Source: Candidatus Latescibacterota bacterium (GTDB lineage: Bacteria > Latescibacterota > UBA2968 > UBA8231). Taken from it: a stretch of 64,000 bases of DNA. Position 1 is the first letter of the stretch. Every line of letters begins with the position of its first letter. Under the pieces are notes generated by a model. The model worked only from the letters and a program-made list of their open reading frames with translations. It did no database searches and was not told where the DNA came from. The position numbers were made by a program, and so were the translations under genes. The stretch lies in the NCBI GenBank assembly GCA_965221775.1, contig CBDCSU010000006.1:576001-640000 (forward strand), given 5' to 3'. This document shows positions 11,387-43,471 of this stretch, one piece after another.

Positions 11387-11568
11387 GTCCATGTATACTC
11401 TACCCAGCTGCATGAAACCTACGCGGAATTGCGCAGGTAGGCACTCTAGTCTTGACCCCTCGCTCGCAGCTTAGGCGCGCAGTGCGATGGGTCCGGAAGC
11501 GGCGAGATGGCGCGCCAGCGCAGCCACGGCATCAGTCCCTCCTTCTCCCATTCACGAAAGGGGAGCGC

Positions 11569-12632: not shown

Positions 12633-12663
12633 AGTGTCCACGCACATCCACGCAGAGAGAGAT

Positions 12664-27772: not shown

Positions 27773-30700
27773 CTACTCCAGCAGCCCCCCAAGGGCCGAC
27801 GCCGCTTCCCAGCCCGTCTCCGATTCCACGAGTTGCTGGCGTTCGGCGCCCGTGAGCCACCGGGCCCGGCTTCCCTTGGCGTCGCGGGTCACGGCGAGGA
27901 CGTGGTCGATCTGCTCGGCCACGGCGCGGACGTGGGAGATCACCCCCACCATGCGGCCGCTGGCGGCGACCGTTGCCAAAGCCTGCACCGCCGAGTCGAG
28001 GTTGTTGCGGTCGAGGGAGCCGAAGCCCTCGTCGAGGAAGAGGGACTCCAGGCGGCCGCCGCTGCGCGCCATCATCTCCACCATGCCCAGGGCGAGGGAG
28101 AGGGAGGCGATGAACTGCTCGCCGCCAGAGAGGCTGGCGGGCGAGCGCGCCTGGCCGGAGTCCTGGTCGAGGACGAGCCACTGCTCCTCGCTGTCCCCGG
28201 GATCGACGAAGGCGTAGCGGCCGCCGCTCATCTCGCCGAGCATGCGGGAGGCGTGGACCAGCAGACGGCGGGATCGCCGGAGGGTGAGCCACTTCAGGAA
28301 GGCGCCCGGCTTCAGGGCGTCCTCCAGGTCGCCGAGGGCCCGTTCCCTGGCCTCGACTTCCTCCAGCAGCGCCCGCAGGCGGCGGACGTCTCCGGCGATG
28401 GCTTCGAAGTGCTCCGCCGCTTCCCGGGCGCGGCGCTCCTCGAAGCGGGCGTCGTTGGCGATGTCGCGGGCTCGATCCACGACCCCGTCCTGGTCTCCCT
28501 CGGCGACCTCCTCGCCCAATCGCCTGCCGATGGCCGCCAGATCCGCACGGGCCTCATCCGCCCGGGCCGCAGCGGCCCTCGCCTGGTCTGCCGCCGCTTG
28601 TGAGACGTCAGCAGTCACCGTCCGCAACTCATCGATCCGCGACATCAGGGCTCCCGTCTCGCCCGTCGAGACAGCCCCGGGGACGATCACCTCGACCCCC
28701 AGCCGGCTGACCGAATCCACGAGCACGTCGCGGTGCCCGTTGAGGCCCTCGACGATCTCGCCGATCGCCGCCGCCACCCCATCGGCCCGCCGCCGCTCCA
28801 GGTCCGACCGGGCGGCCTTGACTTCCTCCAGCTCCCGCCCCAGGCGCCGTCGTTGGTCCCCCCTCTCGGCCAGGACCTGCTCCCGGGCCTCCGCCGACCG
28901 GGTCCGCTCGCTGACCGGGGTCGCATCCACCTCGTGCAGGTCCGAAGGGTCGTCGAACAGATCCAGCTGCGGCCGGTATGGCGGCGGCACCGACCGCACC
29001 GCCGCTCCCAGCCGCTGCAGGGCCCGGTCCGCCGCCGTCCGGGCATGGTCTGCGAGGGTGTCGGCGCCGTCCGCCTCGGCGCGGGCGGCGCTCGCCTCCT
29101 GGTCCCGCCCCGACGATGCCTCGCGCAGTTCTTCGTGGATGCGATCGTGCTCGGTCAGCAGATCCGCCGCCTTCGTGCGGGCGTCCTCCAGGGGGGCGAG
29201 GAGGATCTCTCTCGGGGGAAGGGGCGCCTCCGCAGAGAGATCGACATGGCCAGCCAACTCCTGGCGCGCCTCACCGAGCTTCTCCTCCACCGCGGCGAGC
29301 CGGTCCCCGGCGTCGGCGGTCTGGCGCTCGAGGGCCCGGGCTTCCGCGGCGAGCCCCGCCACCTCTCTCTCCGCCTCTCCGGCGGCCCGGCGGGCCTCCT
29401 CGGCCGCCGCCTGGGCCTCGCCCATCCCGGCGCCGGCCGGGGCTTCCCAGTTGACGGGAAGACCGCGGCGGCAGATGGGGCACTCGTCACCCGGGTGCAG
29501 GGCGTGAGCCGCCGCCGCCGCCGACTCCGACCGCCGCGCCGCGGTCAGATGCTCATCGGCCTGCGCGGCGGCCCTGGACGCGCACCGCTCCCTCTCTCGC
29601 GCCGCTTCCAGGCGACCGCCAAGCTCGGCCGACTCCCGCCGCAGCTCGTCGAGGCGGGTCCTCGTGCGATCGAGTTCGCCGGCGAGTTCCTCGCACCTCG
29701 AGTACCCCTGGTCGACCGCCGTCCTGCGGGCCCGGGCGGACTCGACGGCCTCGGCGAGGGGGGCCCGTCCGGCGGCGTGCTCCGCCGCTGCTTCACGCGC
29801 GCTGGCCGCCTTCTTCGCCAGGCGCCCGGCCTCGACCCGCTTGCCGGAAGCGTCCTCGACCCGGGCACGCAGCTCCCGGGCGGTCCTTTCGCCGTCCGCG
29901 ATCAGGCCGCCGATGCTCCTCAACGTGGTCAGGGCCCCCGCGACCACCTCGCTCGTGGGGCCGTCGTCCGACGGGATGCGGGCCAGCTCCTCCTCGGCCT
30001 GGGCCTGGCGCTGCTCCAGGGCCTTCTCCTCCTCCCGGAGCCGGCGGTCGAGGGCGGCGATCGGGTCGAGCCGGTCCGCCAGCGCGCCCGTGTCCAGCGA
30101 TCGCAGCCGCCTGGCGACCCGGGAGGCCGCCTCCCCTTCCCCCTCGGCGGCGAGGATCGCCTCGCGGGCCTTCGTCGCCGCACCCTCGTCCTCGGAAGCT
30201 GCTTTGGCTCGCTGGGCCGCCGCCGCCAGCGCGGCCTTCAGCCGGGCCAGGTGCGCCGACGGATCTTCCGGATAGGCAGAGGCCGCCTGCTCCAGTCGGG
30301 CCCGCAGAGTCGCGGCCACCTGGCGGGACTCTCCGGCCAGCGCTCCCGCCGCCTCCAGCTCGTCGGTGCGCCAGACCTGCCTCAGGATCCGGCCGCGGTC
30401 GCGCGGCTCGTCCTCCACCAGCAGGCGGGCGAAGCGGCCCTGGGGCAGGATGACGGTGCGCAGGAAGGCATCGCTGTCGAGCCCGATCAGTGCCTTGACG
30501 CGGTCGTTGACGCGGCGGACCTGCTCGACCTGCTCCACCGTCTCGCCGGCGGAGTCGAGCCGGCGGAGCCGGGCGGTAGGCTGGCCCACCGTGCCTTCCC
30601 CGGCGCGGCGCAAGGTGCGCGTCACCTCGCAGGTCTCGCCGGAGACCTCGAATCGGAGCACGACCCGCAGGTGGGTCGAGGTGTCGTTCATCAGCTCCTG

Positions 30701-30880
30701 GTTGGCGTGGGCGGTGAACGTCGTCTGGCCGTACAGAGCGTAGGTCATCGCCTCCAGGATGGAGGACTTGCCCGCCCCCGTGTCTCCCACGATGGCGAGG
30801 TGGTCGCGGCCGGCGAAGTCGATGGCAACGGCCGAGCGGAACGAGCGCAGGCCTTCGATCTTGATGCTCAGGGGCCGCAT
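27773..30880 (-). CDS. sbcC: SbcC/Rad50-like SMC ATPase
   Basis: Walker A GDTGAGKSS, Q-loop LPQG.F, coiled coil with CPIC zinc hook, LSGGE, LFLDEGFG. Confidence 0.93.
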   Translation of the reverse strand: MRPLSIKIEGLRSFRSAVAIDFAGRDHLAIVGDTGAGKSSILEAMTYALYGQTTFTAHANQELMNDTSTHLRVVLRFEVSGETCEVTRTLRRAGEGTVGQPTARLRRLDSAGETVEQVEQVRRVNDRVKALIGLDSDAFLRTVILPQGRFARLLVEDEPRDRGRILRQVWRTDELEAAGALAGESRQVAATLRARLEQAASAYPEDPSAHLARLKAALAAAAQRAKAASEDEGAATKAREAILAAEGEGEAASRVARRLRSLDTGALADRLDPIAALDRRLREEEKALEQRQAQAEEELARIPSDDGPTSEVVAGALTTLRSIGGLIADGERTARELRARVEDASGKRVEAGRLAKKAASAREAAAEHAAGRAPLAEAVESARARRTAVDQGYSRCEELAGELDRTRTRLDELRRESAELGGRLEAARERERCASRAAAQADEHLTAARRSESAAAAAHALHPGDECPICRRGLPVNWEAPAGAGMGEAQAAAEEARRAAGEAEREVAGLAAEARALERQTADAGDRLAAVEEKLGEARQELAGHVDLSAEAPLPPREILLAPLEDARTKAADLLTEHDRIHEELREASSGRDQEASAARAEADGADTLADHARTAADRALQRLGAAVRSVPPPYRPQLDLFDDPSDLHEVDATPVSERTRSAEAREQVLAERGDQRRRLGRELEEVKAARSDLERRRADGVAAAIGEIVEGLNGHRDVLVDSVSRLGVEVIVPGAVSTGETGALMSRIDELRTVTADVSQAAADQARAAAARADEARADLAAIGRRLGEEVAEGDQDGVVDRARDIANDARFEERRAREAAEHFEAIAGDVRRLRALLEEVEARERALGDLEDALKPGAFLKWLTLRRSRRLLVHASRMLGEMSGGRYAFVDPGDSEEQWLVLDQDSGQARSPASLSGGEQFIASLSLALGMVEMMARSGGRLESLFLDEGFGSLDRNNLDSAVQALATVAASGRMVGVISHVRAVAEQIDHVLAVTRDAKGSRARWLTGAERQQLVESETGWEAASALGGLLE

Positions 30881-30881
30881 G

Positions 30882-32138
30882 TCAGCCCCCGCCGGGGTTC
30901 CGGCTCGAGGCGAGTCGGCCCAGGACGTCCTGCGCCTCCGAGAGCAGCGGCGTCAGCCCGAAGTCGGGGCTCGCTTCCTGACCCACACCGCCCAGGGCCT
31001 GTGCGAAGAGGCCGCACACATCGTCGTCCGGCGCCTTGATCCCGCGGGCCGCGGTCCCCCGCCATTCGAGAAACAGCTCGTCGAGCTGCGGCTCCTCGTC
31101 GCCTTCGCGGTCCGGGTCGATGGGCTTCACCGGCTGCCTGGTGATCGTGTTGATCAGCTCGAAGACGGCGCAGTCGGGCGACCACTCGGCCAGGCGGTCG
31201 GCCAGATCCAGGATCGGATCGTCGGAGATGACCCGCGCCTTCAGGATGCAGCCGTCGAGCCCCCCGCCCTCGGCGCGGCCCTGCAGGTCGGCCAGCGTAC
31301 CGGCGACCTCGGTGAGGGGCCGGCCGGCGGGCAGGTCGCGGGTCTCGACCCGGACGTCATCCCCGATCGTCACCAGCACCGCCTGCTTGGTGCGCTCGCG
31401 CTCGCCGAAGTCGAGGGGGATCAGGGAGCCGGCGTACCGTCCCTGCGCGGTCCCGCCCGGCAGCAGTTGCGGGTCGTGGATGTGGCCGAAGGCGCAGTAC
31501 GACGCCCGGTGCAGACCTTCCACGTGAGCGGCGTAGTCCTCTCCCACGGTGATCCGCCGTTCCGACTTCCCCGGCCGGGCGCCCTGCAGGTGCAGGTGCG
31601 CGGCGTAGAGGACGATGCCCCCGGGGCCGGCGTCTTGGCGCGCCTCGTCGAGGAGGCCCCGGTTGAGGGCCTGGATGCCGTCGGCGTAGTCGCCCTCGAA
31701 GCGGGAGGGATCACCCGACGCGAAGTCGGCGATGGCGCTGGGCGGGATGAAGGGCACGCAGGCCACGCTGACCGGAAGGTCCACCAGGCCGGGGAAGGAG
31801 AGGACCTCGGGGCTCGTCACCAGCCACAGCCGGCGCGGGTCCGCGGCGGCGGCCAGGTCGTCGATGACATGCAGGAGCATGGGCGAGTCGTGATTGCCGG
31901 CGATCACCACGGTCGGCGCGACCCGGGCCAGACGCCCCAGGGCGGTGACTCCGAGCCTCAGTGTCTCGTGCGGGGGACGGGAGGAGTCGAAGAGGTCGCC
32001 CGTGTGCAGGATGAGGTCGGGCGCCTCGGACTCGGCCACCTCCAGCAGCCCCCGGAGCGCCTCCAGGTGATCCGGCGTGCGGTCGTGCCGGCCGAGCTTC
32101 GCCCCCAGGTGCCAGTCGGAGGTATGGAGCAGCTTCAC
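30882..32138 (-). CDS. sbcD: SbcD/Mre11-like nuclease
   Basis: HTSDWHLG, GDLFD, GNHD, GHIH, YAGS..PLDFGE. Confidence 0.93.
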   Translation of the reverse strand: MKLLHTSDWHLGAKLGRHDRTPDHLEALRGLLEVAESEAPDLILHTGDLFDSSRPPHETLRLGVTALGRLARVAPTVVIAGNHDSPMLLHVIDDLAAAADPRRLWLVTSPEVLSFPGLVDLPVSVACVPFIPPSAIADFASGDPSRFEGDYADGIQALNRGLLDEARQDAGPGGIVLYAAHLHLQGARPGKSERRITVGEDYAAHVEGLHRASYCAFGHIHDPQLLPGGTAQGRYAGSLIPLDFGERERTKQAVLVTIGDDVRVETRDLPAGRPLTEVAGTLADLQGRAEGGGLDGCILKARVISDDPILDLADRLAEWSPDCAVFELINTITRQPVKPIDPDREGDEEPQLDELFLEWRGTAARGIKAPDDDVCGLFAQALGGVGQEASPDFGLTPLLSEAQDVLGRLASSRNPGGG

Positions 32139-33958
32139 AGGTCCCGTTCCGGACCTGCCAGGGCGTCCAGGTTGTTGCGGATTCCTTCGGTCTGCTGCCG
32201 GTCCGCGGCCTCGTCCGCCGCCGCCTCGTCGGGATTGGTGGCGAAGGGCGGGAAGGGGAAGCGGATGGGAATGGGCTCGGGCACGATCGGCTGGGAGGCG
32301 ACCATGGTGCCCGGCATGAAGCGGGTGGCGCGCTCGCGCAGGGCCGGGGTGAGGAAGCGGTAGGTCTCCGACTCGCTGGCATCCAGCCGTCCCGCCACCT
32401 TCAGCGACGCGTTGCGCGGCAGCGGCTGGGCCACGGCGGAAGCCGCCTGCTGGGCGCCGATGAGCAGCACCCCGAGGGATCGGCCGCGTTCGGCGATGTC
32501 CACCAGCAGGTCCCTGAGCGGCGAGAACCCCTGGGCCGGCGCGTACTTGTTCAGCTCGTCGAGCACGACGAAGCGCAAGGGCAGGCGGCCGCTCCCCTGC
32601 TTGTCGCGCCAGATGCGGTCGAGGAGAGCGCCCACGACGAAGCGCTGGGCGTCGTCGTGGAGGCGCGAGATGTCCACCACGTGGAGGCGGGCGTTCTCCA
32701 GGGACAGCGGCTCCAGGCCGCAGCCGACGAGGGGTCCGAGGTGGCGGCGCAGGCGCAGCAGCCGGCGCAGGAAGGCCTGCCGGGTACCGCTCTGGGTGCG
32801 CCCGAACCAGGCGTCGACCGAGGCCTCGTCCTCCTCGGCGGCGGCCTGGTCCAGCAGGTCGATCAGGTCGCCGAACTGGCGGATCACGTCTCCGTCGCCG
32901 GCGGTCGCCTCCTCCGGCTCGCGCTCCGCCAGGCGGTCGGGGTTGTAGCTGGTGTCGGCGGGAATCCTATGGGCGATCACCACCGCGCCCGTGGAATCGC
33001 CCGCCAGTCGGCGCAGCCGGCGCAGGAGCTGGATGCGCACCTGCTGCTCCACGAAGCCGACCTGCGTCGCCCGCTCGTCTTCCGAGGTGAAGCAGAACTG
33101 GAGCAGCTGATCGCGGATGAACCGCTCCGGCGTCCAGCCGTAGGCCTCCACGTCGCCGGTGGCGCGGGAGTGCACCTCCGGCGTGAGATGGTCGCCCCTG
33201 GCGGTCCCCCGCGGCGCGTAGAGCCGCACCGAGCGGAAGGGTCCGGGGTCGGCCACGCCCAGCGCCTGCCACGATTCGTGCTGATCCGGCCTGCCGGCGA
33301 ACTCGCTGTTGGCGCGGTCCAGGTGGAGCAGGTCCTCGCCCTTGGTGTTGAAGACCAGGGCCCGCACCCCGTCCCGTTCGGCGCGGCCCCCGAGCAGTTC
33401 CATGCCCCCATCCGTTTCCAGCAGTTGGTAGAGGAGGAACAGGGCGTAGGAGGTCTTGGTGGCCACCCCCGAGATTCCCGAGATCGAGACGTGGCCGCCG
33501 GAACGCCCGTCCACGAAGCGCATGTCGGCGTACACGGGGGAGCCGCCCATGTCCAGCCCCAGGGGCAGCTTGCCGCGGGTCATCTCGTCCTCGAAGAGGG
33601 CGAAGACCCGGTGCTCGCCGGTGGCGGGGGTCACCACCGCCCCGGCGTGGGGCGCCAGGAACAGCTCCGGCCGCACGCGCAGGACGCGCACCTGGGCGCG
33701 GCGGACCAGCTCGGCCGGCAGGGTCCGGTCGATGACGCGGCCCGTGTCGGAGGGCAGGTCCGCCCCCTCGAAGCGGGAGAGCAGCTCGGTGACGATGCCG
33801 TAGTGGATCACCTCTCGACCGTCGGGGAGCGCCGTGGTCACGGTGATCAGCTCGTCGAGCTGGATCACCACCTCCTCGTCCAGCACCACGTGAAAGGTCC
33901 GGGAGTCGCTGTCCACCGATCCATCGACCAGCCCGATGCGCGCCGGTCCGCCGCTCAT
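32135..33958 (-). CDS. herA: HerA-like ATPase/DNA translocase
   Basis: N-terminal HAS-barrel-like region, variant Walker A SISGISGVATKTS, IFNTKG-type motif VFNTKGEDL, Walker B VVLDELNKY, LIGAQQ; ATGA overlap with upstream gene. Confidence 0.82.
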   Translation of the reverse strand: MSGGPARIGLVDGSVDSDSRTFHVVLDEEVVIQLDELITVTTALPDGREVIHYGIVTELLSRFEGADLPSDTGRVIDRTLPAELVRRAQVRVLRVRPELFLAPHAGAVVTPATGEHRVFALFEDEMTRGKLPLGLDMGGSPVYADMRFVDGRSGGHVSISGISGVATKTSYALFLLYQLLETDGGMELLGGRAERDGVRALVFNTKGEDLLHLDRANSEFAGRPDQHESWQALGVADPGPFRSVRLYAPRGTARGDHLTPEVHSRATGDVEAYGWTPERFIRDQLLQFCFTSEDERATQVGFVEQQVRIQLLRRLRRLAGDSTGAVVIAHRIPADTSYNPDRLAEREPEEATAGDGDVIRQFGDLIDLLDQAAAEEDEASVDAWFGRTQSGTRQAFLRRLLRLRRHLGPLVGCGLEPLSLENARLHVVDISRLHDDAQRFVVGALLDRIWRDKQGSGRLPLRFVVLDELNKYAPAQGFSPLRDLLVDIAERGRSLGVLLIGAQQAASAVAQPLPRNASLKVAGRLDASESETYRFLTPALRERATRFMPGTMVASQPIVPEPIPIRFPFPPFATNPDEAAADEAADRQQTEGIRNNLDALAGPERDL

Positions 33959-34938
33959 GCCGCGCTCCCCGGGGTCGAGGCCGAACGGTTGAGCTGCAGG
34001 ACCGCGGCCCTCACCGCGCGCAGGGCCAGGCGCGGGTCCCCCTGCAGGTGATGGAGATGGCGCTCCAGGCCGGCCACCGGGGTCATGTTCACCGGGGCGC
34101 GCACGTCGCGGTGCGGGGCGGATGCGAAGGCCGGCAGCCAGCTCGCCGCGGCCTCGGCGGTCTCCACGGCCAACCCCAGGCCGACGCCGGCGGGCACCTC
34201 GAGCCTGACGATCCCGGCCCACGGACCCGCCCACGGCGATGGCCGGCCGACCCGCAGATAGCAGCCGTAGAGGTCCTCCCCCATGGCGAACAGGCCGGAG
34301 CGCTCGCCGGAGGAGAGGCTCGGCACCTCGTTCCAAGCCTCGGGGGCCAGCATCGGCCGGTGATGGGTCTTGACGTAGCCGATGACCGGCAGGGTGCGGG
34401 TGCGGCGGATGTTGTGCAGGGGCCCGTCGATCACGGTGAGCCACCCCGTCTCCGAGAGCCCCTCGGCGATGTCGGCCTCGGTATCGCGCATCCTTCGTCT
34501 CAGGCGGTCGCGGGCGGCTTCCAGCTCGGTGCCGGTGATCGAGTCCGCCTCCCAGGACCATCCCCCGGCCTGCGGCGGGAGCTCGACGCGCTCGCCCGCG
34601 GTGAAGATCGCGGCCCTCCCCACGGTGATCTGGTCGAAGTGCAGGGGCTGCTGTCCATCGACCCGCACCGCACCCGCTCCCCAGCTTCCCGCCAGTCCGG
34701 CTACCGTCCCCTGCCCGCCGGTGAGGGTGAGGCCCGCCTCGACGCGCATCGTGCCGTCGACGAAGGCCAGCCTCCGGGGACGCTGCGCGGCTGCGGGCGA
34801 ATGGACGCGGAAGGCCCCGTCATCCTCGACCAGCTCGCAGGTTAGCGCCTCGGGGGCATCGGCGGGGACCTGGAAGCCGGCGCCGAAACCGGCCTCGAAA
34901 GGTTCCACGCCGATGGTGGTGCGGACCGGCTCCCTCAC
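33955..34938 (-). CDS. nurA: NurA-like nuclease
   Basis: LAFVDG, TVIDGPL, IGYVKTH, RAPVN..PV.GLE; directly upstream of herA-sbcD-sbcC. Confidence 0.75.
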   Translation of the reverse strand: MREPVRTTIGVEPFEAGFGAGFQVPADAPEALTCELVEDDGAFRVHSPAAAQRPRRLAFVDGTMRVEAGLTLTGGQGTVAGLAGSWGAGAVRVDGQQPLHFDQITVGRAAIFTAGERVELPPQAGGWSWEADSITGTELEAARDRLRRRMRDTEADIAEGLSETGWLTVIDGPLHNIRRTRTLPVIGYVKTHHRPMLAPEAWNEVPSLSSGERSGLFAMGEDLYGCYLRVGRPSPWAGPWAGIVRLEVPAGVGLGLAVETAEAAASWLPAFASAPHRDVRAPVNMTPVAGLERHLHHLQGDPRLALRAVRAAVLQLNRSASTPGSAA

Positions 34939-36104
34939 GCCGCCGTCTGGAACGGCTGCCAGTCCTCTCCCGCCGCCGCCGCCTGGCGCTCCAGCTCGCT
35001 GCGCCAGCCGACGACCTCGCCGGACTTGATGCGCTTGATGTCGTAGCCGGCGTAGCGGTCCTCCAGGGTGTCGCCCAGCCTCTGGGTCTCGGCCCAGCGG
35101 TCCCAGGCGGTCTTCATCCACTCGTGGGGCAGGGCCTCGCGCACGGCGGGGTCGAGCTGCCAGGCGCTGCGGGCGTCGGCCACGGTCGGCTCGCCGGTGG
35201 GGGGGCCGCCCCACTTCGTCCAGCCGATGGAGAGGGTGTTGCGCTCGCGGTCGGGGACGCAGTGGCCGGTGTGGATGGTGGCGCCGTTGCGGATCAGGGC
35301 CTCGCCGGCCTTGAGGCGGATGGCGGTCTGCCCCGGCAGGGGGTCCTCGCCGTTCCAGCTGGGGGTGTGGGGGACCCCCTTCTCCTTCATCGCCTTGGGC
35401 AGCAGCACGTCGTGCTCCAGGGGGGTGCGCCAGCGGTCGTGGGATCCCGGGATCAGCTCGTGGCACTCGTCGTCGGTCAGGGCCAGGAACATGCTCACCC
35501 CGCTGCGCTCGGTGATCGACTTGGCGTTGCTCTCCTGGATCTCCTTCCAGCGCCTGCGCTCCACCTCCTCGGAATACGCCTCGGGGCCCTCCGGCTCCTC
35601 GCCGCCCTGGGCGCGGTAGGGCTTGCCGGTGCCCCACCAGGTCGTGTCCCGGTGCCAGCCGAGCTTGTTCTCGCGCTTGCGGGGGTTGCACCACAGCAGC
35701 AGGCCGCCGAGGACCAGGTCCTCGCGCTGCAGCCCGCCGCACCAGGACTCGATGAAGGCCAGGAAGTCGTCGGAGCCGTGGAAGGCGGCGAAGTCCGGCT
35801 CCCCGAAGGCGGGGTGGACGAGGCCGCGGATCGCCCACGGCTCGTCCTCGGCGGCGCGGTGCACGTAGCCCCGGGAGCAGTCGATGCGGTCGTAGCCGTT
35901 CTCCGGGGCGCAGGCCTGGGTGATCCGGCGTCCGGCCTCGCGCAGGACGGGGATCCACGGGTTGTCGACGAAGTCGGTAATGATCACGAAGCCGTGCTCC
36001 CGGAGGTGCTCCAGCCGCTCCGGCGTGCCGCCCGGGGCGGCGAGCTCGGGCTTGGAGTCGGCGAAGGCGGGGGCGCGGTAGGTGGATGGCGAGTCGGCGG
36101 TCAT
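34935..36104 (-). CDS. Phytanoyl-CoA dioxygenase (PhyH)-family Fe/2OG enzyme
   Basis: LREHGFV, WHRD, LIPGSH, LKAGEAL.....IHTG; start ATG 36104. Confidence 0.8.
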   Translation of the reverse strand: MTADSPSTYRAPAFADSKPELAAPGGTPERLEHLREHGFVIITDFVDNPWIPVLREAGRRITQACAPENGYDRIDCSRGYVHRAAEDEPWAIRGLVHPAFGEPDFAAFHGSDDFLAFIESWCGGLQREDLVLGGLLLWCNPRKRENKLGWHRDTTWWGTGKPYRAQGGEEPEGPEAYSEEVERRRWKEIQESNAKSITERSGVSMFLALTDDECHELIPGSHDRWRTPLEHDVLLPKAMKEKGVPHTPSWNGEDPLPGQTAIRLKAGEALIRNGATIHTGHCVPDRERNTLSIGWTKWGGPPTGEPTVADARSAWQLDPAVREALPHEWMKTAWDRWAETQRLGDTLEDRYAGYDIKRIKSGEVVGWRSELERQAAAAGEDWQPFQTAA

Positions 36105-36234: not shown

Positions 36235-36681
36235 TCACATATCGGCACGTAGGGGAAGCAGGATCTCATTCTCGATCCGAACCTCCAGAGCGCGCACGAC
36301 CTGGCATAGTCGCTGGTAGCTGGCGGAGGCGTAGCGTTCCGCCTCATACCGTTGGATCTGCTGCTCCTTGAGTTCCAGGCGTTGGGCAAGCGCCCGCTGG
36401 CTCAGTCCTGCCGCAATCCTGGCCTTGATCAGGCCGTCCGCAAGCTCTTCGAAGGAGGCTACCGAAATGACCGACATGTGGGCCGACTTGAGTTGCTCGT
36501 ACTCATCGAGCTCTTTCCGCAGGTCCGCCAGTTGGCTCTCCATGGCCTCCCGCTCGGCCTGCAGCAGCCTCGCGTGCACATCGTTACGTTCGTCCGCCAT
36601 GGCGTCGAACTCTTCGATCGCACGGGCAAAGCCGAGCGCCTTCTTTCGCGTGATCCGGTACTGTCTCTCGTTGGTGATCAT
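36235..36681 (-). CDS. XRE-family HTH protein (antitoxin-like)
   Basis: MITNERQY N-terminus; LIKARIAAGLSQRALA..L.LKEQQIQRYE. Confidence 0.85.
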   Translation of the reverse strand: MITNERQYRITRKKALGFARAIEEFDAMADERNDVHARLLQAEREAMESQLADLRKELDEYEQLKSAHMSVISVASFEELADGLIKARIAAGLSQRALAQRLELKEQQIQRYEAERYASASYQRLCQVVRALEVRIENEILLPLRADM

Positions 36682-36859
36682 GGCACGCTCCCCAAATCGA
36701 TCAGCCGGCCGCTGCCACGTTGCGGCACGCAGCTAGCAAACCTTCCATCAGTCGCGCTCCGTGGCAGTTGCCGGCGAAGCGACCGGCGACATCGTGCCAT
36801 CCGGCAACGTGGACGCCTGGCAGGAGGTAGCCAGTCTCGGGGTCAGGCTCAAGCATCAT
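36678..36859 (-). pseudogene. Internally deleted DUF6932-like (nucleotidyltransferase-type toxin) gene
   Basis: N-terminus G.LLPGVH...W.D...RF.GN...RLMEGL..A..N...AG is joined out of frame to a C-terminal LIDLGSVP* that overlaps the HTH start (ATGA). Confidence 0.65.
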
Positions 36860-36879
36860 GAACACAACATTATCATTGT

Positions 36880-37266
36880 GTTGATCGGTGCCAACCCCCC
36901 AAAGCGGCCGCGCCCTCGTCCTGAGCCACCTTCCGTACCGCGTCATCGGCCTGGAGGTGAGCACCGGGCGGCCGGCGGGCACCGCCTGGCGCCCCGGCGA
37001 GAGCGTGGAGGTTTCCTCGCCGTGGTCATCTCCGAGGCGATCCTCAGCCCGGCCGGCGAAGCACGTGATCCGCGTCGACGTGACCGATCCCGCCGGGGAG
37101 GAGGCCGGCGCCCACGGCGGGAAACTTCGACGCCCCCGGGGGCGACCTGGAGTTGCGCCTGCCCCTGGCCCTCAACGCGCCGGAGGGTGCCTGGACCCTG
37201 CGGGTGCGGGACGTGGGCTCGGGCGTGACCGCCGTCCGGCGTTTCGAGGTTGTGCCGGCGGAGTAG
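36880..37266 (+). pseudogene. Frameshifted C-terminal remnant of a large protein (Ig-like domain)
   Basis: LSHLPYRV..L, HVIRVDVTDPAG, LPLALNAPEG.WTLRVRDV.SG in three frames; no N-terminus. Confidence 0.55.
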
Positions 37267-37641
37267 ACTGCGCCATCCACGGAGGATGCGATGGATCCCG
37301 AGAAGCGTCCGCTGGGACGCGTACCGGAAGAGGAGCCCCTCACCAGATCCTCGCCGGGCAATCTGGAACCCGGTCTCCACCAGGCCTGAACCCCCGAGGA
37401 CCGACTCCCCGTGCGGTGAGTGGGGCTCGCCGGTACTCGCGGTCTTCTGACCCTGGTGGCCTCCGGTATCGAGCTTCGGGGCGGAGTGAGCGGCATCCAG
37501 AGGAACCACGGCGCCAGACTCTACGCACCCTCTCCCTTGCGGTACTACGTGAGCCACCGTATACTCCTGTGTGTTTCAGTTGTACATATCCCTACCGCGT
37601 GCTACTGCCGGCCCTGGTGACCGATGCGAGAGGTGAAATTG

Positions 37642-38067
37642 ATGGCGGACGAGCAGCAGGACGACCTCAAGGAGGAAGCGAGCCTGTCGTTTCGGGCGAA
37701 CGCTGCGGATCTAGCCTCAATGCTGGCCATCGGTGAGCACATCACCGATTTGACGCGGAACATCGACCCCGATTGCTCCGTGACAGGCACGACCTCTCGC
37801 GCCGGGATCATCAGGTACGCCATCCGACAGGTTGGTCATCTGGTTCAGACACCGGCCGGACGGCGTGTGTTAACCTACGCCGGGCGCAAGGAGCTTCGGA
37901 TGTATCGCCGCGCACAGAGCGCCTTCGCCGGCTCGTGGCATTGGGTTGAGACCTGCTCTGGGTGGCCTAGGACGAACTTCCTTGAGCAACTTGAGCGGCC
38001 CCCGGGGGAAGCTCTTTGCCCTACGTGCAGACAACTAGAAGCGAACGAAACAGAGAACCTAGGTTAG
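37642..38067 (+). CDS. Hypothetical protein: RHH-like N-terminal region + small His/Cys zinc-finger-like domain
   Basis: gaggtg RBS; LSFR...SRAGIIRYAIRQ; YRR...WHW..TC..WP...LCPTC; ends 20 nt before the Ubl gene. Confidence 0.55.
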   Translation: MADEQQDDLKEEASLSFRANAADLASMLAIGEHITDLTRNIDPDCSVTGTTSRAGIIRYAIRQVGHLVQTPAGRRVLTYAGRKELRMYRRAQSAFAGSWHWVETCSGWPRTNFLEQLERPPGEALCPTCRQLEANETENLG

Positions 38068-38087
38068 ACAACGAGGAGGAGTGCACC

Positions 38088-38381
38088 ATGGCCCTAGAAC
38101 CTGGAAACGCCGATGGACCCATCGGACCGACGGGGATCGTCAAGGAGCTAACCATTTACATCAATGCCCGGTCGGTGCTCTGGGACAAGCCGACCATTAG
38201 CTTTACGCAAGTGGTCGAGCAGTGGAACCAGCTCGATCCGGAACGATACGTAATCGGTGATCTGCCTGGCATCAACTGGACGGCGATGGACGGAACAAAG
38301 GGTATTTTCTATCCGTCGGATGAACCAATGGCCGTCGTTGATGAACTAGCGTTCAAGATCGACGACTCGTATCTCGCATAG
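38088..38381 (+). CDS. Ubiquitin-like protein (single Multi_ubiq-type beta-grasp domain)
   Basis: gaggagg RBS; LTIYINAR...WDKPTISF.QVV...KG...P.....V.D...F.I pattern; adjacent to a ThiF gene. Confidence 0.72.
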   Translation: MALEPGNADGPIGPTGIVKELTIYINARSVLWDKPTISFTQVVEQWNQLDPERYVIGDLPGINWTAMDGTKGIFYPSDEPMAVVDELAFKIDDSYLA

Positions 38382-38390
38382 GGGAAGCGT

Positions 38391-39527
38391 GTGTCTGAGC
38401 ATGAATCACTGGCTCGCCGCGAAGCGGAGCGACGGGGGTGGATAATTGAACGCCGAGACCTAGAAATAGGTGCAGTAGGGGTACCCTGTTTTGTCACACC
38501 CAATACGGCAGGCAGGTGTCACATCTGGGTAGGCATCGGCCCAAACTCAGACGAGCTCACAGCAAACCACGACTGGCAGCAAAATGCTCCGCACACGGCC
38601 GATGTGCGAGGCTTATCACATGGTCGATTGTACGACCGCTCCGGCAACGAGTTGACAAACGGCGTGATTGGGCGAGCTCAAACCAGCCTTGTTCTTTCGA
38701 TCAAGCTTAAAGGCCGTGAGTATGAGGACGCTTGGGAAGCCCTGAACAACTATGTCAAGCAGATCTACGCCCTGTTCCTCGGCCGATCCGCATCGAGAGA
38801 AGAAGCAGCTCCTCGCCCCTATGCGTTCGATGTGCTCGGTGACCAACTGCCAGAAGCGGTGGATTGGAGGGGTCTAGTAGCACAAGAGGGCGTGACGATT
38901 GTCGGACTCGGTGGCGTCGGCGCATGGATAGCAGACCTTGTTCTCAAGGCCGATCCTCGAGAAGTTCACGGCTGGGACTACGACTGCATCGAACCCAAGA
39001 ACATACTACGCATGCCCGGTGGACTTGATCCGAGCGCCTGGATTGGGAGACCCAAGGCCGACTGGTTCCAGGAGACCTACTCCCTCATCCACACAAATGT
39101 ACATGGCCACAATGTAAAGGTGCTCCCTGGAAACGTGCAGGAGGTCATTGCAGGAACCACTTTCGCCTTCGTAGCCGTGGACGACGCTCACGACCGGATG
39201 ATGGTGTGTGACGCGCTGGCCAGCGCTGGAGTCCCCTTCGTGGTGGTAGGACTTTCACCCGTACGCAAGGACAAGCGAGTCAGAGTTTCCATGCGGACGG
39301 TAACAGCCCATGTCGGCACGTCCTCTTGGAGGAATGCTATCCCTCAGGTTGGCCAAGCAGGACAGGACGACTACGGAAGTCTTGACTTGCCCGACGTCTA
39401 CGCAATGGCTGCGGGCTGGGCAATTCAGTCCTGGCGCAAGATGCGCGGCCAATTCTGGCAGGAGCAAAGGGAGGAATGCCTCGACTATAGTGCTAGTGAC
39501 CAGTCTCTCATAGTGAGAGGGGTCTAA
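38391..39527 (+). CDS. E2-like (DUF6791-like) + ThiF/E1 adenylyltransferase fusion
   Basis: IVGLGGVGAWI.D, D.D.IE.KN..R.PG, KAD, FAFVAVD, DDY...W.KM.G tail; ~160-aa N-terminal extension. Confidence 0.8.
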   Translation: MSEHESLARREAERRGWIIERRDLEIGAVGVPCFVTPNTAGRCHIWVGIGPNSDELTANHDWQQNAPHTADVRGLSHGRLYDRSGNELTNGVIGRAQTSLVLSIKLKGREYEDAWEALNNYVKQIYALFLGRSASREEAAPRPYAFDVLGDQLPEAVDWRGLVAQEGVTIVGLGGVGAWIADLVLKADPREVHGWDYDCIEPKNILRMPGGLDPSAWIGRPKADWFQETYSLIHTNVHGHNVKVLPGNVQEVIAGTTFAFVAVDDAHDRMMVCDALASAGVPFVVVGLSPVRKDKRVRVSMRTVTAHVGTSSWRNAIPQVGQAGQDDYGSLDLPDVYAMAAGWAIQSWRKMRGQFWQEQREECLDYSASDQSLIVRGV

Positions 39528-39528
39528 G

Positions 39529-39924
39529 ATGCACTTCTGGAAGTGGATGAAGCGGGGGACACGAAATACCCAACCCCACCATGCTGTGAGGAACCGAGAG
39601 TCAATGGTATTGAAGCCAATGTTTGTTGAGACAATCCCGCACCTACCCGAAATGGAGAGAGGTACACTCTACGTCAGCATGCGCTTCGCTACCCTCTCCC
39701 ATCTGTGTCCCTGCGGGTGTGGTCGTTTGGTCGACGTGACGCTGAACCCTGAGACCCGTAGTTTGATCTACGATGGTGAGTATCTAACTCTAAGACCTTC
39801 GATCGGGGTCAAGTTCCCATGCAGAAGCCACTACTCGATCATTCGGAATGCGATCATGTGGCACCCGCGGATCTCCAAGTGCGAGAGCAGGTGGTACGAC
39901 CGCTTTAGGAAGAGATGGGCCTAA
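39529..39924 (+). CDS. DUF6527-family metal-binding protein
   Basis: FVE.IP...E.G.LYVS, HLCPCGCG, YDGE.LTL.PSIG, CRSHY.I..N. Confidence 0.82.
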   Translation: MHFWKWMKRGTRNTQPHHAVRNRESMVLKPMFVETIPHLPEMERGTLYVSMRFATLSHLCPCGCGRLVDVTLNPETRSLIYDGEYLTLRPSIGVKFPCRSHYSIIRNAIMWHPRISKCESRWYDRFRKRWA

Positions 39925-40044
39925 GGACAATAGACCATCTAACTCTCCCCTTGGCATGTAGCGACCTCTTGCCGTCTGCGACTCTTTGGAGGCTACATGA
40001 ACACATTGGGGGCAGATGCCCTCCAGAAAGGACGAGAAACCAAC

Positions 40045-40545
40045 GTGCCATATCGAAATAAGACGTTCGTATCGTTTGACGGGGACACAGACATTCACTA
40101 CTACCGGTTAATGCAGGCGTGGAAGCAAAGCGACGGCATGGACTTCAACTTCTACGACGCCCATGATCTGAACACCGCACGGGACTCGAGCCGAGAGGAG
40201 TCGATCAAGGCGCAGCTAGCGGCTCGAATGCGTGCGACCAAGATCTTTGTGCTCTTGATCGGAGAGCATACCCGGTATCTTAGGAAGTTCGTGCGTTGGG
40301 AAATCGAACAGGCGCTCAGGCGGGAACTACCGATCATTGCGGTCAACCTCAATGGAAGGCGTCACCTCGACGATGCCAGGTGCCCTCCCCTACTTCGAGA
40401 AGAACTCGCCATTCATGTCAGCTTTAACGCATCCATCATTCAGCGTGCGATGGATGCGTGGCCTTCTTTCCACAGCGGCAAGCTTGGCAAGGAGTCTGGT
40501 CCGCACTACTACCAGGATTCTGTCTACCAGGAATTGGGCCTGTGA
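40045..40545 (+). CDS. thsB: Thoeris ThsB-like TIR-domain protein
   Basis: YRNKTFVSFDGD.D, FNF.DAHD, LLIGE.T, catalytic-type WEIE.A, PII.VNLNG. Confidence 0.85.
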   Translation: MPYRNKTFVSFDGDTDIHYYRLMQAWKQSDGMDFNFYDAHDLNTARDSSREESIKAQLAARMRATKIFVLLIGEHTRYLRKFVRWEIEQALRRELPIIAVNLNGRRHLDDARCPPLLREELAIHVSFNASIIQRAMDAWPSFHSGKLGKESGPHYYQDSVYQELGL

Positions 40546-41480
40546 CCCTTAGTCGCCTTCGATTCCAGGCCATGGCATGGATCAAGGAGGTGGCGTCAAC
40601 AAGAGCTCTCTCTATCATGTTTGGCGTGGCCGGCGCATACTTCCTGCTTTACAAGATGGCCGCGTTGTTCTTGGAGGACACGCCGATTCACCAGCTCCTG
40701 AGACAGCTTTGGTGGCTTGGTTTTCTTGTTGGTGGCACTTACGCCCTGTGGGTTTGCAGGCCACGAACCTCGATAACCCACAGGCTCTCGGGACGGGACG
40801 TGACGCTCGAGATTGCTGTGGGTGATGTTCTGTCCTTCACTGGCGACCTTGTGATAGGCAGCAATACGACATTCGACACGAAGGTATCGAAAAGGCTCAT
40901 TTCCAAGGAGAGTGTGCAAGGCCAATTCCTGGCGCGGTACTACGGAAGCGACAGTGACACGCTCGACGGGGAGCTTCGTGACCAACTGGATGATCTCTCA
41001 GCGGAAGTACTTGCCGGAGACCGTGTCGGCAAGAGCGCGAGGTACGAGTTGGGGACGGTTGTCCAAGTTCATCCTGATCGCCGGCATCCAAACCGCCGAG
41101 CCTACCTTCTAGCGATCGCGGATATCAATGAGGGAGGGGTGGCGCGCGGTGACTTTGAAGGGCTAAAGCGAGCGCTCGCTGCGCTGTGGGTGTACGTAGG
41201 TGCTCGCGGTGCAATTTCACCTTTGGTTGCGCCGGTCCTGGGTACTGGTTTCTCGAGGCTGTCAGAAAAGAGAGAGGAAGTCGTTCGTGAGATGTTTCGG
41301 TCGTTCGTGGCTGCCTGCTCCGATGGCGTGTTCACGCCGCGATTCACGGTCGTGCTCGGTTGGCAGGACGTTGTTGAACACAACATATCGATAGAAGAGC
41401 TTGGGCTGTTTGTTAGGCATCTCTGCCTCTACGCCGAACATTCGAGGGCTGACGTAGATCCAATTGGGGCTCCGGTATAG
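40542..41480 (+). CDS. thsA: Thoeris type II ThsA-like effector (2 TM helices + macro domain, DUF6430-like)
   Basis: Two N-terminal hydrophobic helices; GD......VIGSNTTFDT, S.QGQF, YELGTV, PVLGTG.SR; GTGA overlap with the TIR gene. Confidence 0.8.
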   Translation: MTLSRLRFQAMAWIKEVASTRALSIMFGVAGAYFLLYKMAALFLEDTPIHQLLRQLWWLGFLVGGTYALWVCRPRTSITHRLSGRDVTLEIAVGDVLSFTGDLVIGSNTTFDTKVSKRLISKESVQGQFLARYYGSDSDTLDGELRDQLDDLSAEVLAGDRVGKSARYELGTVVQVHPDRRHPNRRAYLLAIADINEGGVARGDFEGLKRALAALWVYVGARGAISPLVAPVLGTGFSRLSEKREEVVREMFRSFVAACSDGVFTPRFTVVLGWQDVVEHNISIEELGLFVRHLCLYAEHSRADVDPIGAPV

Positions 41481-41514: not shown

Positions 41515-42081
41515 TCAGGATCGATCAAGAAGCTCTCTATGCTTATCGCGGAGGGCAGACAGCAGCTCCTCTTGGAACTCCTTCGACAAGCGTGATGACT
41601 CCGACCGGAATATGCGGACGCCCGTCTCAATCACCCAATTCAGGGGGATTTTCGGATTGTTGAGATGCCCCCGTCCTTCACGCAGCCTCTCTTCCCACAG
41701 CTGGAAGTAGGTTTCGAGATCCGCTGCGGTGAGGTGATAGATGTGCTGAAGTTCGATGCCCTCGTAGACTCCGAATATCCAGTCGACCGAACGATAGTGA
41801 TCGATTATCGCCTGATTCATGTGATGGTGTGTGGTGAAACTCCGTGCACTCGTCGCCAGGTTTACTGACTTGATCTCATACTCCTTACCATCGTCATCTT
41901 CGGCATCAGAACCTTCCCGACCTGGAGTGTTTTTTAGCCCGGTAGTCATCAGCAACTGCAGCAACTTGCCGCCATTGTCTTGAAATATGTCGTTGATTCC
42001 GTGAACGGAAGCCAATGCTTGGTAAACCCGTATGTACGGCAATAGCACATCCAGGATTGCCTTGTCCGGGTGAGGATTCAC
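41515..42081 (-). CDS. pvuIIR: PvuII-like type II restriction endonuclease
   Basis: HGINDIFQDNGGKLLQ, PGREG.DA, EYEIKS, F.THHHMN, NNPKIP. Confidence 0.92.
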   Translation of the reverse strand: MNPHPDKAILDVLLPYIRVYQALASVHGINDIFQDNGGKLLQLLMTTGLKNTPGREGSDAEDDDGKEYEIKSVNLATSARSFTTHHHMNQAIIDHYRSVDWIFGVYEGIELQHIYHLTAADLETYFQLWEERLREGRGHLNNPKIPLNWVIETGVRIFRSESSRLSKEFQEELLSALRDKHRELLDRS

Positions 42082-42308
42082 TTCTTCTTGCCAGACAGAA
42101 GGTCAGCGATACTGGCCCCGACCGCGGCTGCAATCCGCTCCATGTTGTCGATGGAGACATTACGCTCCCCACGCTCGACCGCGCCGATATAGGTGCGATG
42201 GATGCCCGCCATCTGTGCGAGACCCTCCTGAGATAATCCTTTGGCCTGACGGAGTCTCCGCAAATTCGCGCCGAATCTCTGTCGGGCACTTGACTGAGTT
42301 GCACCCAT
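42078..42308 (-). CDS. pvuIIC: R-M controller (C) protein, XRE HTH
   Basis: FGANLRRLR..KGLSQE.LA..AGIHRTYIG.VERGERNVSIDN; overlaps the R gene start; start 42308 preferred, 42329 possible. Confidence 0.88.
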   Translation of the reverse strand: MGATQSSARQRFGANLRRLRQAKGLSQEGLAQMAGIHRTYIGAVERGERNVSIDNMERIAAAVGASIADLLSGKKK

Positions 42309-42334
42309 ATTCTTTAATGTACTACTCATGTGAT

Positions 42335-42360
42335 GACCATAAGTCTACAGCCTATGAGTA
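42335..42360 (-). promoter_or_regulatory. Paired C-boxes (operator of the C-R transcript)
   Basis: Minus strand TACTcatAGGC-TGTA-GACTtatGGTC fits the GACT-N3-AGTC-TGTA-GACT-N3-AGTC architecture. Confidence 0.85.
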
Positions 42361-42385
42361 GCATTCCCACCCGGAGAAGAGGTCA

Positions 42386-43471
42386 ATGGCTGGAAGAGAG
42401 GTGCTCCTGCCTGAGAAGCCCGCGTATCACACAAATCTTGGCGCCGCGTACTGTGGCGATTCACTGGAGTTGCTATCGGAGTTGCCTGATGGCGCAGTCG
42501 ATCTCGTGATCACCAGTCCACCCTTCGCTCTTCAAAGGCAAAAGGAGTATGGGAACAAGGACCAAGCTGAGTATATCGACTGGTTGACGGAATTCGCTAG
42601 ACTAGTCCATCAGAAGTTGAACGACCATGGCAGCTTTGTGTTGGATCTCGGTGGTGCATATCGAAGGGGTGTCCCTGCCCGGAGTCTATACAATTTCCGG
42701 GTCGCAATAAGGTTTTGTGACGAGGTAGGGTTCTTTCTTGCGGAGGACTTCTACTGGTTCAATCCGTCCAAGCTCCCCAGTCCCATTGAGTGGGTCAACA
42801 AACGCAAAATGCGGGCAAAGGACTCGGTCAACACGGTGTGGTGGTTTAGCAAGACGGAGTGGCCGAAGGCGGACGTAACGAAAGTCCTCACCGAATACAG
42901 TGATCGAATGAAGAGGCTCTTGGAGGCTCCGGATAGCTTCTACTCACCGGCCGAGAGACCTTCGGGGCACGATATAGGGAGAGGATTCGGCAAACGTAAC
43001 CAAGGCGCAATACCAAGCAACTTGCTCAAGTTGCCGCTGGTGGACGAGGACGCTCTTTCTGCGCTATTGGAGGAGTTTGATTTGCCGCCCAATTTGCTCG
43101 AGATACCCAACTCTGAGTCCAACAGTCAGTACCTGAGGGGTTGCAAGAGCGCAGGGGTGAAAGCACATCCAGCTCGGTTCCCCCCGAGATTGCCTGAGTT
43201 CTTCGTCCGGTTTCTTACCGATCCATTCGATCTCGTAGTCGACATTTTCGCAGGCTCTAATACGACGGGAATGGTCGCCGAGAGGGAAGGTCGGCAGTGG
43301 TTAGCTTTTGATGAGAGGGTTGACTACTTGGCAGCGTCCGCTTTCCGGTTCTTCGGAGTTGAAGCTACGGCAGAAGAAGCGAAGTCGGTGTATCAACGCA
43401 TCAAGAGCGGCGAGTCCGTGAATATGGAGCAATTTGCGGGGCAACGGGACATCTTGGGACAGCACAACTGA
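42386..43471 (+). CDS. pvuIIM: M.PvuII-like N4-cytosine DNA methyltransferase (beta class)
   Basis: ITSPPFAL...KEYGN, NPSKLPSPIEWVNKRK, HPARFP, DIFAGSNTTG; divergent from C-R. Confidence 0.93.
   Translation: MAGREVLLPEKPAYHTNLGAAYCGDSLELLSELPDGAVDLVITSPPFALQRQKEYGNKDQAEYIDWLTEFARLVHQKLNDHGSFVLDLGGAYRRGVPARSLYNFRVAIRFCDEVGFFLAEDFYWFNPSKLPSPIEWVNKRKMRAKDSVNTVWWFSKTEWPKADVTKVLTEYSDRMKRLLEAPDSFYSPAERPSGHDIGRGFGKRNQGAIPSNLLKLPLVDEDALSALLEEFDLPPNLLEIPNSESNSQYLRGCKSAGVKAHPARFPPRLPEFFVRFLTDPFDLVVDIFAGSNTTGMVAEREGRQWLAFDERVDYLAASAFRFFGVEATAEEAKSVYQRIKSGESVNMEQFAGQRDILGQHN

Follow-up and report, generated by a model that had tools for sequence, protein, structure and literature searches.

The operon and its genes

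The stretch of DNA analysed here, referred to throughout as the window, comprises 64,000 nucleotides (nt) from a Candidatus Latescibacterota bacterium (GenBank assembly GCA_965221775.1, contig CBDCSU010000006.1, positions 576,001 to 640,000), and all positions are counted from its first letter. Between 37642 and 39924 lie four co-oriented genes whose predicted products resemble the components of a ubiquitin-like conjugation pathway. They are best explained as a Type II Bub operon with a regulator, orf1, as its first gene, the four genes forming one mobile unit, and we give this reading a probability of roughly 0.75. The genes are as follows.

37642-38067, + strand: orf1, 141 amino acids (aa) from the ATG; a longer frame opens at 37624
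38088-38381, + strand: bubA, 97 aa, single beta-grasp ubiquitin-like protein (Ubl)
38391-39527, + strand: bubBD, 378 aa, GTG start, predicted E2-like domain fused to an E1 adenylation domain
39529-39924, + strand: bubE, 131 aa, DUF6527 protease by homology (PF20137)

The open reading frames (ORFs) are separated by 20, 9 and 1 nt, and the last of these gaps, which places bubE directly 3' of bubBD, is read as translational coupling. Shine-Dalgarno sequences precede the first two genes, with GAGGTG 6 nt 5' of the ATG at 37642 and AGGAGG 8 nt 5' of the ATG at 38088. An earlier sequence-only reading of the window had described four co-oriented genes with these gaps, in the order possible regulator, Ubl, E2/E1 and DUF6527, and both spacing and order are borne out by the ORF coordinates and Pfam matches. 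The finer features it had named are also present: Cys and His residues in the first gene product (H33, C45, H66, H100, C105, C126 and C129), a ThiF core behind an N-terminal domain in the 378-aa protein (PF00899, residues 167-289, E 3.8e-10), and the motif HLCPCGCG...CRSHY in the product of the fourth gene. The whole block was found again in 11 other genomes, and the ratio of non-synonymous to synonymous substitution rates (dN/dS) against the window copy is 0.12-0.41 in each of the four genes; all four are therefore considered real.

Membership of the Type II Bub family

The operons once called "6E/DUF6527" have been renamed Bub by Ye, Gong, Chambers and Corbett (bioRxiv 10.1101/2024.11.21.623953). 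Type II, formerly 6E.2/DUF6527, is defined there by BubA, an E2-E1 fusion termed BubBD, and BubE, without a JAB peptidase. Conjugation is described as passing through an oxyester between the Ubl and a tyrosine in the E1 crossover loop, followed by an oxyester with a serine of the E2. In E. coli BubBD the product is lost with the changes R219A, Y342F and S106A, and the Type II E2 serine goes together with an invariant lysine and histidine. BubE, the DUF6527 protein, is reported as a zinc-dependent Ser-His protease with a C4 site that cleaves BubA-target conjugates, and expression of Bub in E. coli yields non-specific conjugates.

The window operon has the Type II gene complement of a free-standing Ubl, an E2-E1 fusion and a DUF6527 protein, and Pfam finds no JAB/JAMM peptidase in the four-gene block. 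Its three-gene core, the order of that core and the lack of a JAB peptidase are shared with the Type II Bub operon of E. coli ZDHYS365, to which the window adds a conserved first gene from an orphan family. On gene content and conserved residues, the operon is very probably a member of Type II Bub with the published Bub chemistry. The sequence-only reading had put it forward as an undescribed system of no established function. The system is not undescribed, because the Type II Bub family was published in 2024, and the chemistry (a BubE protease, and conjugation through tyrosine and serine oxyesters) appeared with it. The idea that DUF6527 takes the place of a JAB peptidase fared better, as the block has no JAB and the protease role had already been published for BubE.

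Full-text searches of the literature turned up neither a reported biological role for Bub nor a gene like orf1. Table S1 of the preprint, in its accessible form, holds 405 "Type II Bub" rows, its regulator columns are CapP, CapH and CapW only, and a term search of it returned no Gemmatimonad or Acidobacteri entries. What is new here is modest: a putative regulator from an orphan family, a single-domain Ubl that ends in alanine, and a 2.3-kb block that appears to move between phyla.

The conjugation proteins

Citrobacter BubCD is the best match of BubBD in the PDB, both when the single sequence is used (E 5e-4) and when a profile is (E 3e-13). A search of 1.84 billion representatives returned 542 relatives at E ≤ 0.001 and just 9 at E ≤ 1e-30, so the window protein appears to belong to a small, diverged branch. 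It was aligned with 39 mostly full-length representatives (n = 40), to which its identity is 20-32% for 38 and 49% for one. Conservation in this alignment is as follows.

H68, E2 domain: 40 of 40
S103, E2 domain: 38 of 40, Cys in the other two
K105, E2 domain: 32 of 40
G172, G174, G175, G177, D196 and K222, ATP site: 40 of 40
R207, adenylation: 40 of 40
Y328, crossover loop: 40 of 40

All three E2 residues, H68, S103 and K105, are present in the window protein, and no column of the 40-member alignment is an invariant cysteine. Compared with E. coli BubBD, which itself lies outside the alignment, the window protein keeps the E2 serine, lysine and histidine, the adenylation arginine and the crossover tyrosine. 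We infer that the N-terminal region, approximately residues 1-150, is an E2-like domain. When the BubBD profile was searched against the PDB, it matched E1-type chains only and no E2-type chain. Two of the representatives, P0120 and P0149, have cysteine in place of the E2 serine and methionine in place of the neighbouring lysine; these may represent variants of Bub in which the E2 step proceeds through a thioester.

BubA matches Multi_ubiq (PF14452) at E 1.6e-4 and 22.2 bits, under the Pfam cut-off of 24.5 bits. An AlphaFold2 model built from a 25-sequence alignment has a predicted local distance difference test score (pLDDT) of 80, some 20 disordered residues at the N-terminus and the element order beta-beta-alpha-beta-beta-beta. 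Its best Foldseek match is 9cd2, the multi-ubiquitin protein of E. coli ZDHYS365 (E 2.3e-3, probability 1.00), Citrobacter 9d5a is also matched, and the further matches are other beta-grasp domains. With no match at E ≤ 0.001, the homology is distant, but the fold is supported. The sequence-only reading had called the product of 38088 a beta-grasp-like protein of about 97 aa and had staked its proposal on that fold; the model is indeed a beta-grasp, with 9cd2 on top. In contrast to the 9cd2 chains of 217-219 residues, the window BubA is one beta-grasp domain of 97 aa with an alanine end.

The C-terminal sequence IDDSYLA is conserved, and the last residue is alanine in 24 of the 25 aligned sequences and serine in one. 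The preprint gives the activated residue of the Type I Ubl of Citrobacter as glycine. Eight Type II operons were found in genomes related to the window; in six of them (L020-L024 and L029) the BubA ORF, of 82-116 aa, ends in TDRS, TDQS, TGQS, AHLS, TDKS or EHVS, and in two a BubA ORF was not recognisable. Because the ORF 5' of BubBD ends in serine in these six, a small residue other than glycine seems normal at the end of Type II BubA. Alanine here and serine in the related genomes would extend the known set of terminal Ubl residues open to activation by an E1.

BubE matches DUF6527 (PF20137) at E 3.1e-16. It holds the four cysteines of a predicted C4 zinc site (C60, C62, C64 and C98) and a putative S91-H101 dyad, so that both elements of E. 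coli Type II BubE are kept. The Ser-7-Cys-3-His spacing is that of Citrobacter S92/C99/H102, where the published C4 site consists of C57, C59, C61 and C99.

The first gene and its upstream region

The orf1 family comprises 84 homologues at 50-100% identity, mostly 70-90%, and it was found neither in Pfam nor, by sequence or profile search, in the PDB. The gene is under purifying selection, with dN/dS of 0.15-0.41. The C-terminal 60 or so residues carry the motif WHWVExC...CPxC with conserved H100, C105, C126 and C129, and the longest run of invariant columns in the protein, WHWVExCSGWP...F.EQL.RP...CPxC, lies in the same region.

Modelled as a homodimer, orf1 scores an ipSAE of 0.67, compared with 0.00 for the best of three controls. 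The mark used for this score is reached by 20 of 30 proteins whose solved structure is a pair of one chain and by 1 of 23 solved as a single chain, a calibration that is only roughly valid here since orf1 was run with a custom alignment. Contact agreement between runs is at least 94% and partner pLDDT at least 76. The closest contacts form two groups, one of 16:16, 15:19 and 17:15, the other of 57:57, 60:60 and 64:64. Read from this contact list, the predicted arrangement fits an antiparallel two-strand ribbon with paired second helices, as in ribbon-helix-helix (RHH) proteins. The likeness to RHH proteins of the CopG/Arc/MetJ type extends to a predicted symmetric dimer with a short, antiparallel N-terminal strand and two helices, and to the position at the head of an operon, whereas orf1 differs from RHH repressors in a longer inter-helix loop, a C-terminal His/Cys3 domain of about 60 residues and the lack of any sequence match.

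In all nine public genome loci orf1 lies directly 5' of bubA-bubBD-bubE. Among 12 copies of the cassette it is full length in nine, reduced to its N-terminal 84-89 residues in two (G110 and G112) and a frameshifted pseudogene in one (L009), while bubA, bubBD and bubE are intact, at 71-87% identity, alongside all three states. A two-domain regulator fits these losses better than an essential enzyme subunit would. CapW, CapH and CapP are absent from the window operon. In three of the eight Type II operons of related genomes, small ORFs on the 5' side were read by eye as a CapH/CapP-like pair, and those operons are without orf1. On balance, the dimer prediction and this gene context favour orf1 as a DNA-binding regulator of the operon, and it probably holds the place taken by CapW or CapH/CapP in other Bub operons.

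A profile search for orf1 in 168 genomes of the window's phylum found the cassette in G000, G110 and G112 and gave two weak matches away from Bub genes, in G068 (6.6e-6) and G010 (0.00997). The former, L041:5539-5802, shares 29% identity with orf1 residues 55-133 and lies away from any Bub genes; the orf1 C-terminal domain may occur in other contexts.

A candidate promoter lies upstream of orf1.

37580-37608, + strand: putative cassette promoter, with -35-like TTGTAC at 37580-37585, a 17-nt spacer with TG, and -10-like TACTGC at 37603-37608

When 180 nt of upstream sequence are aligned, the starts of two heptamers, resembling GTTGCAC and GTGCTAC, are separated by exactly 20 nt at six of nine loci. 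They are interpreted as a -35 element (TTGCAC) and an extended -10 element (TACACT-like), to which the window -10 is a poor match. A scan of 36900-40100 gave one promoter-like site, on the minus strand, and one terminator-like site, both inside bubBD, with counts of either kind at or below the shuffle expectation; within the same scan neither a promoter nor a terminator was called between bubE and the following gene, thsB.

Evidence for transfer between distant bacteria

At the nine public loci the cassette is 80-84% identical in DNA to the window copy, a similarity that begins with the orf1 start and goes no further than the bubE stop. According to their records the hosts belong to Arenicellales and Pseudomonadales (Pseudomonadota), Vicinamibacterales and "Acidobacteria" (Acidobacteriota), Gemmatimonadetes, and Rhodothermales (Rhodothermota). 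Contigs of 3.4-8 Mb carry six of these loci, for which a binning error is therefore unlikely. The GC content of the cassette is 0.50-0.57 across loci with flanks of 0.37-0.70, and in the window itself the block has 0.54-0.57 compared with about 0.70 in the flanks. Synonymous divergence (dS) of the cassette is 0.31-1.11. These comparisons are evidence that the 2.3-kb four-gene block moves as a unit between distant bacteria, in at least four named phyla.

The cassette itself is without a mobility gene. Integrases or transposases lie near it in four of the nine loci (L001, L004, L005 and L006). In a blastn search in distant mode none of 72,556 plasmids or 50,697 phages matched the cassette, the 64-kb window holds no tRNA gene, and no integrase family was found among the long ORFs scanned between 22.7 and 57.3 kb of the window. 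DUF6527 is patchy among the window's relatives, occurring in 10 of 61 genomes. One genome of the window's class, G042, matches DUF6527 five times, in one case with an internal TGA, and therefore holds several Bub operons.

Defence genes beside the cassette

Immediately downstream of bubE lie genes of two recognisable defence systems.

39997-40545, + strand: ThsB TIR of Thoeris II (ThsB_TIR 1.1e-19; PADLOC ThsB 1e-73), with an ATG preceded by a Shine-Dalgarno sequence
40458-41480, + strand: ORF of ThsA TM-Macro of Thoeris II (ThsA_Macro 3e-40; PADLOC 1.9e-51)
41515-42081, - strand: PvuII-like restriction endonuclease (Endonuc-PvuII 2.5e-53; PADLOC REase_II 5.9e-57)
42078-42329, - strand: C protein (HTH_3; PADLOC control protein 2.1e-26)
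42386-43471, + strand: N4/N6 methyltransferase (N6_N4_Mtase; PADLOC MTase_II 2.1e-167)

The first pair, a ThsB TIR with a ThsA Macro protein, corresponds to the definition of Thoeris type II. The ThsA ORF overlaps that of ThsB by 88 nt, but since its profile match opens only at residue 41, translation probably begins at the internal Met near 40572. The PvuII-like restriction-modification (R-M) genes have the classical divergent arrangement and share the low-GC stretch of the Bub cassette. The sequence-only reading had thus rightly placed the operon beside Thoeris (39997-41480) and an R-M system (41515-43471), although the 120 nt that it gave for the gap to Thoeris apply only from the GTG at 40045; from the ATG at 39997, with its Shine-Dalgarno sequence, the gap is 72 nt.

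Defence genes recur elsewhere. In seven of the nine other loci PADLOC gives one or more hits at E ≤ 1e-10 no further than 7 kb from the cassette, a raw count uncorrected for the background frequency of R-M genes near random genes.

L001, L008 and L009: type II R-M pairs within 7 kb (PADLOC)
L002: methyltransferase within 7 kb (PADLOC)
L003: type IIG enzyme and methyltransferase within 7 kb (PADLOC)
L006: SNF2 helicase, BrxH/PbeA-like, within 7 kb (PADLOC)
L007, 3342-6692: 1116-aa homologue of Tiamat TmtA (PADLOC E 2.8e-148), directly 5' of the cassette in a Gemmatimonadetes metagenome-assembled genome

Three of these loci, from different lineages, have an R-M pair in common, composed of an EcoRI-like methyltransferase and a GmrSD_N/HNH endonuclease (L001:322-2373, L008:4600-6749 and L009:9179-11328; PADLOC REase_II E about 1e-136 to 1e-144). 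It lies directly 3' of the cassette in L008 and L009; the L001 methyltransferase is divided between two ORFs. The cassette and this pair may sometimes move together.

The cassette appears to have been gained repeatedly by unrelated bacteria beside R-M, Tiamat, Thoeris and helicase defence genes. A defence role is plausible; a specifically anti-phage one is tentative, its chances somewhat short of even. Being compact, with an apparent promoter of its own, a small dedicated regulator and a single-domain Ubl, the cassette would be a convenient construct with which to look for the targets and triggers of Bub.

Proposed pathway and alternative explanations

By analogy with the published Bub chemistry, the E1 half of BubBD would bind ATP through its Gly-rich loop, D196 and R207 and adenylate the C-terminal carboxylate of BubA, on Ala97. 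BubA would then pass into an oxyester on Tyr328 of the crossover loop, next to Ser103 of the E2-like N-terminal domain with the help of H68 and K105, and finally to a lysine of the target. BubE, as a zinc-bound Ser91-His101 protease, would strip BubA from its targets and restrain the pathway. The product of orf1 would most likely be a dimeric RHH-type repressor of the cassette promoter, whose C-terminal His/Cys3 domain may take the input signal. The four genes would travel as one 2.3-kb block that lands mostly among defence and mobile genes, and this setting makes phage or stress defence the likely candidate role.

A number of observations weigh against this reading. Each catalytic step is deduced from residue conservation. 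The window BubBD has no match at E ≤ 0.01 to DUF6791, the Pfam model for the UBC/E2-like N-terminal domain, though 29 of the 40 aligned members do, and a hidden Markov model of its N-terminal domain (150 residues) finds eight Type II proteins in related genomes and no Type I BubAB. The terminal residue of BubA is alanine, as opposed to the glycine that is adenylated in Citrobacter. None of 20 members of the orf1 family has an RHH match in Pfam at E ≤ 5, the profile search of the PDB gives nothing below E 0.6, and the ESM atlas offers a weak lead only, to an RHH_1 cluster at rank 10 with a score of 0.75. The AlphaFold2 monomer of orf1 is poor (pLDDT 47, with helices at 21-41 and 53-63), and its RHH dimer is a prediction rather than a measurement. 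A generic promoter scan calls no site 5' of orf1 in the window, and the conserved upstream stretch has no inverted repeat, all repeats in the window lying outside it at 36964-37327. With regard to defence, the adjacency to Thoeris and the PvuII-like genes occurs in the window only and in none of the nine other loci, and according to the preprint none of the Bub operons tested there protected against phage. PADLOC has no model for orf1, BubA or BubE, as the sequence-only reading had expected of the whole operon; BubBD departs from that expectation with weak E1-E2 hits.

The losses of orf1 also bear on whether its product might instead be a working part of the pathway, such as a substrate adaptor, an E3-like factor or the preferred target of BubA, with the His/Cys3 domain binding BubBD or a phage protein. 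Such a role would sit well with a C-terminal motif that contains the longest invariant run of the protein, with purifying selection on the gene, with cross-locus homology that opens at the orf1 start codon, so that orf1 moves with the enzymes, and with the want of a match to any DNA-binding family. We consider it improbable, as the dimer model has the RHH contact pattern, the C-terminal domain is deleted in two of 12 copies and the gene broken in one with bubA, bubBD and bubE intact, and small helix-turn-helix ORFs, read as CapH/CapP-like, replace orf1 in other related Type II operons. The same broken and truncated copies speak against an addiction module of toxin-antitoxin kind, in which orf1 would be an RHH antitoxin and repressor and uncontrolled BubA conjugation would be toxic. 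An RHH protein encoded first in a small mobile operon is typically a type II antitoxin, the cassette is compact, moves horizontally and lacks a mobility gene, and the conjugates formed by Bub in E. coli are non-specific according to the preprint. However, to lose an essential antitoxin while the enzymes remain intact (one copy broken, two truncated) should be lethal unless the N-terminal part suffices, and BubE, as published, already provides a built-in antagonist; this explanation is very unlikely.

Pairs of a beta-grasp protein and an E1-like enzyme also occur in pathways of the ThiS/MoaD kind, where the beta-grasp protein carries sulfur, and the BubBD family profile matches TcdA, MoeB, ThiF and MccB in the PDB as well (E 1e-11 to 2e-4), so that the operon could in principle serve the synthesis of a cofactor or thio-compound. 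The chance of this is slight indeed: BubCD is the best match in the PDB, the E1 is joined to an E2-like domain that carries the H/S/K residues of the family, the gene for a deconjugating protease is translationally coupled at a 1-nt gap, no rhodanese, cysteine desulfurase or cofactor-synthesis gene lies in the cassette or is conserved beside it, and BubA has no Gly-Gly end.

The Type II Bub reading also has a bolder form, in which the cassette would represent an undescribed sub-type of Type II Bub: a self-contained, cross-phylum module of 2.3-2.4 kb with its own promoter, a Ubl activated at a C-terminal alanine, and a sensor-regulator from a new family in which an RHH dimer is linked to a His/Cys3 domain for metal or redox and which replaces CapW or CapH/CapP. 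This is possible and, as matters stand, rather unlikely. If it were true, the C-terminal domain of orf1 might sense a trigger such as a phage protein, a metal or a redox change and switch conjugation on.

Relationship to other bacterial conjugation systems

Bub pathways are the sole Ubl conjugation systems known to work without catalytic cysteines. With Type I Bub from Citrobacter (9ea4, 9ea5 and 9d5a) the window operon would share both this oxyester chemistry, deduced here from conserved residues, and a DUF6527 protease. In Citrobacter, according to the preprint, the Ubl is fused to the E2 as BubAB, ends in glycine and is cut by a JAB domain fused to the E1 (BubCD), whereas the window operon lacks a JAB, joins its E2 to the E1 and has an unfused Ubl with a terminal alanine.

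The Bil system (BilABCD) is similar in having Ubl, E2, E1 and peptidase in one operon and in its defence contexts. It differs, as described in the literature, by separate E1 and E2 proteins with catalytic cysteine, a JAB peptidase and a demonstrated anti-phage mechanism. An assignment to Bil was rejected, there being no JAB in the block, an E2 fused to the E1 and no conserved cysteine in the family alignment. Type II CBASS, with Cap2 and Cap3, resembles the window in its E2-E1 fusion and dedicated deconjugating peptidase, yet Cap2 conjugates the CD-NTase, uses cysteines and is paired with Cap3, a JAB peptidase. The PADLOC E1-E2 hits of BubBD are weak and cover residues 164-264, the best, at 3.7e-6, falling within the nucleotide-binding stretch 164-233. 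Given these weak hits and the lack of a CD-NTase, Cap3, JAB and cysteine, an assignment to CBASS Cap2 was also rejected.

Other features of the window

The flanks of the island encode SbcC/SbcD-like proteins, a PhyH-like protein, a protein with a DMFA2_C domain and TonB-dependent receptors. On the minus strand at 36235-36982, a 93-aa ORF, whose match to DUF6932 (E 0.016) covers only positions 5-49 of the 142 in that model, is followed by a 148-aa HTH_3 protein; the two may be what is left of a small two-gene module that bordered the island. Further upstream, at 32135-35958 on the minus strand, two overlapping ORFs of 808 and 667 aa without a Pfam match adjoin the SbcD-like and SbcC-like genes at 27773-32138. 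A second low-GC stretch occurs at 10001-13000 of the window, with GC of 0.56-0.58 compared with about 0.70.

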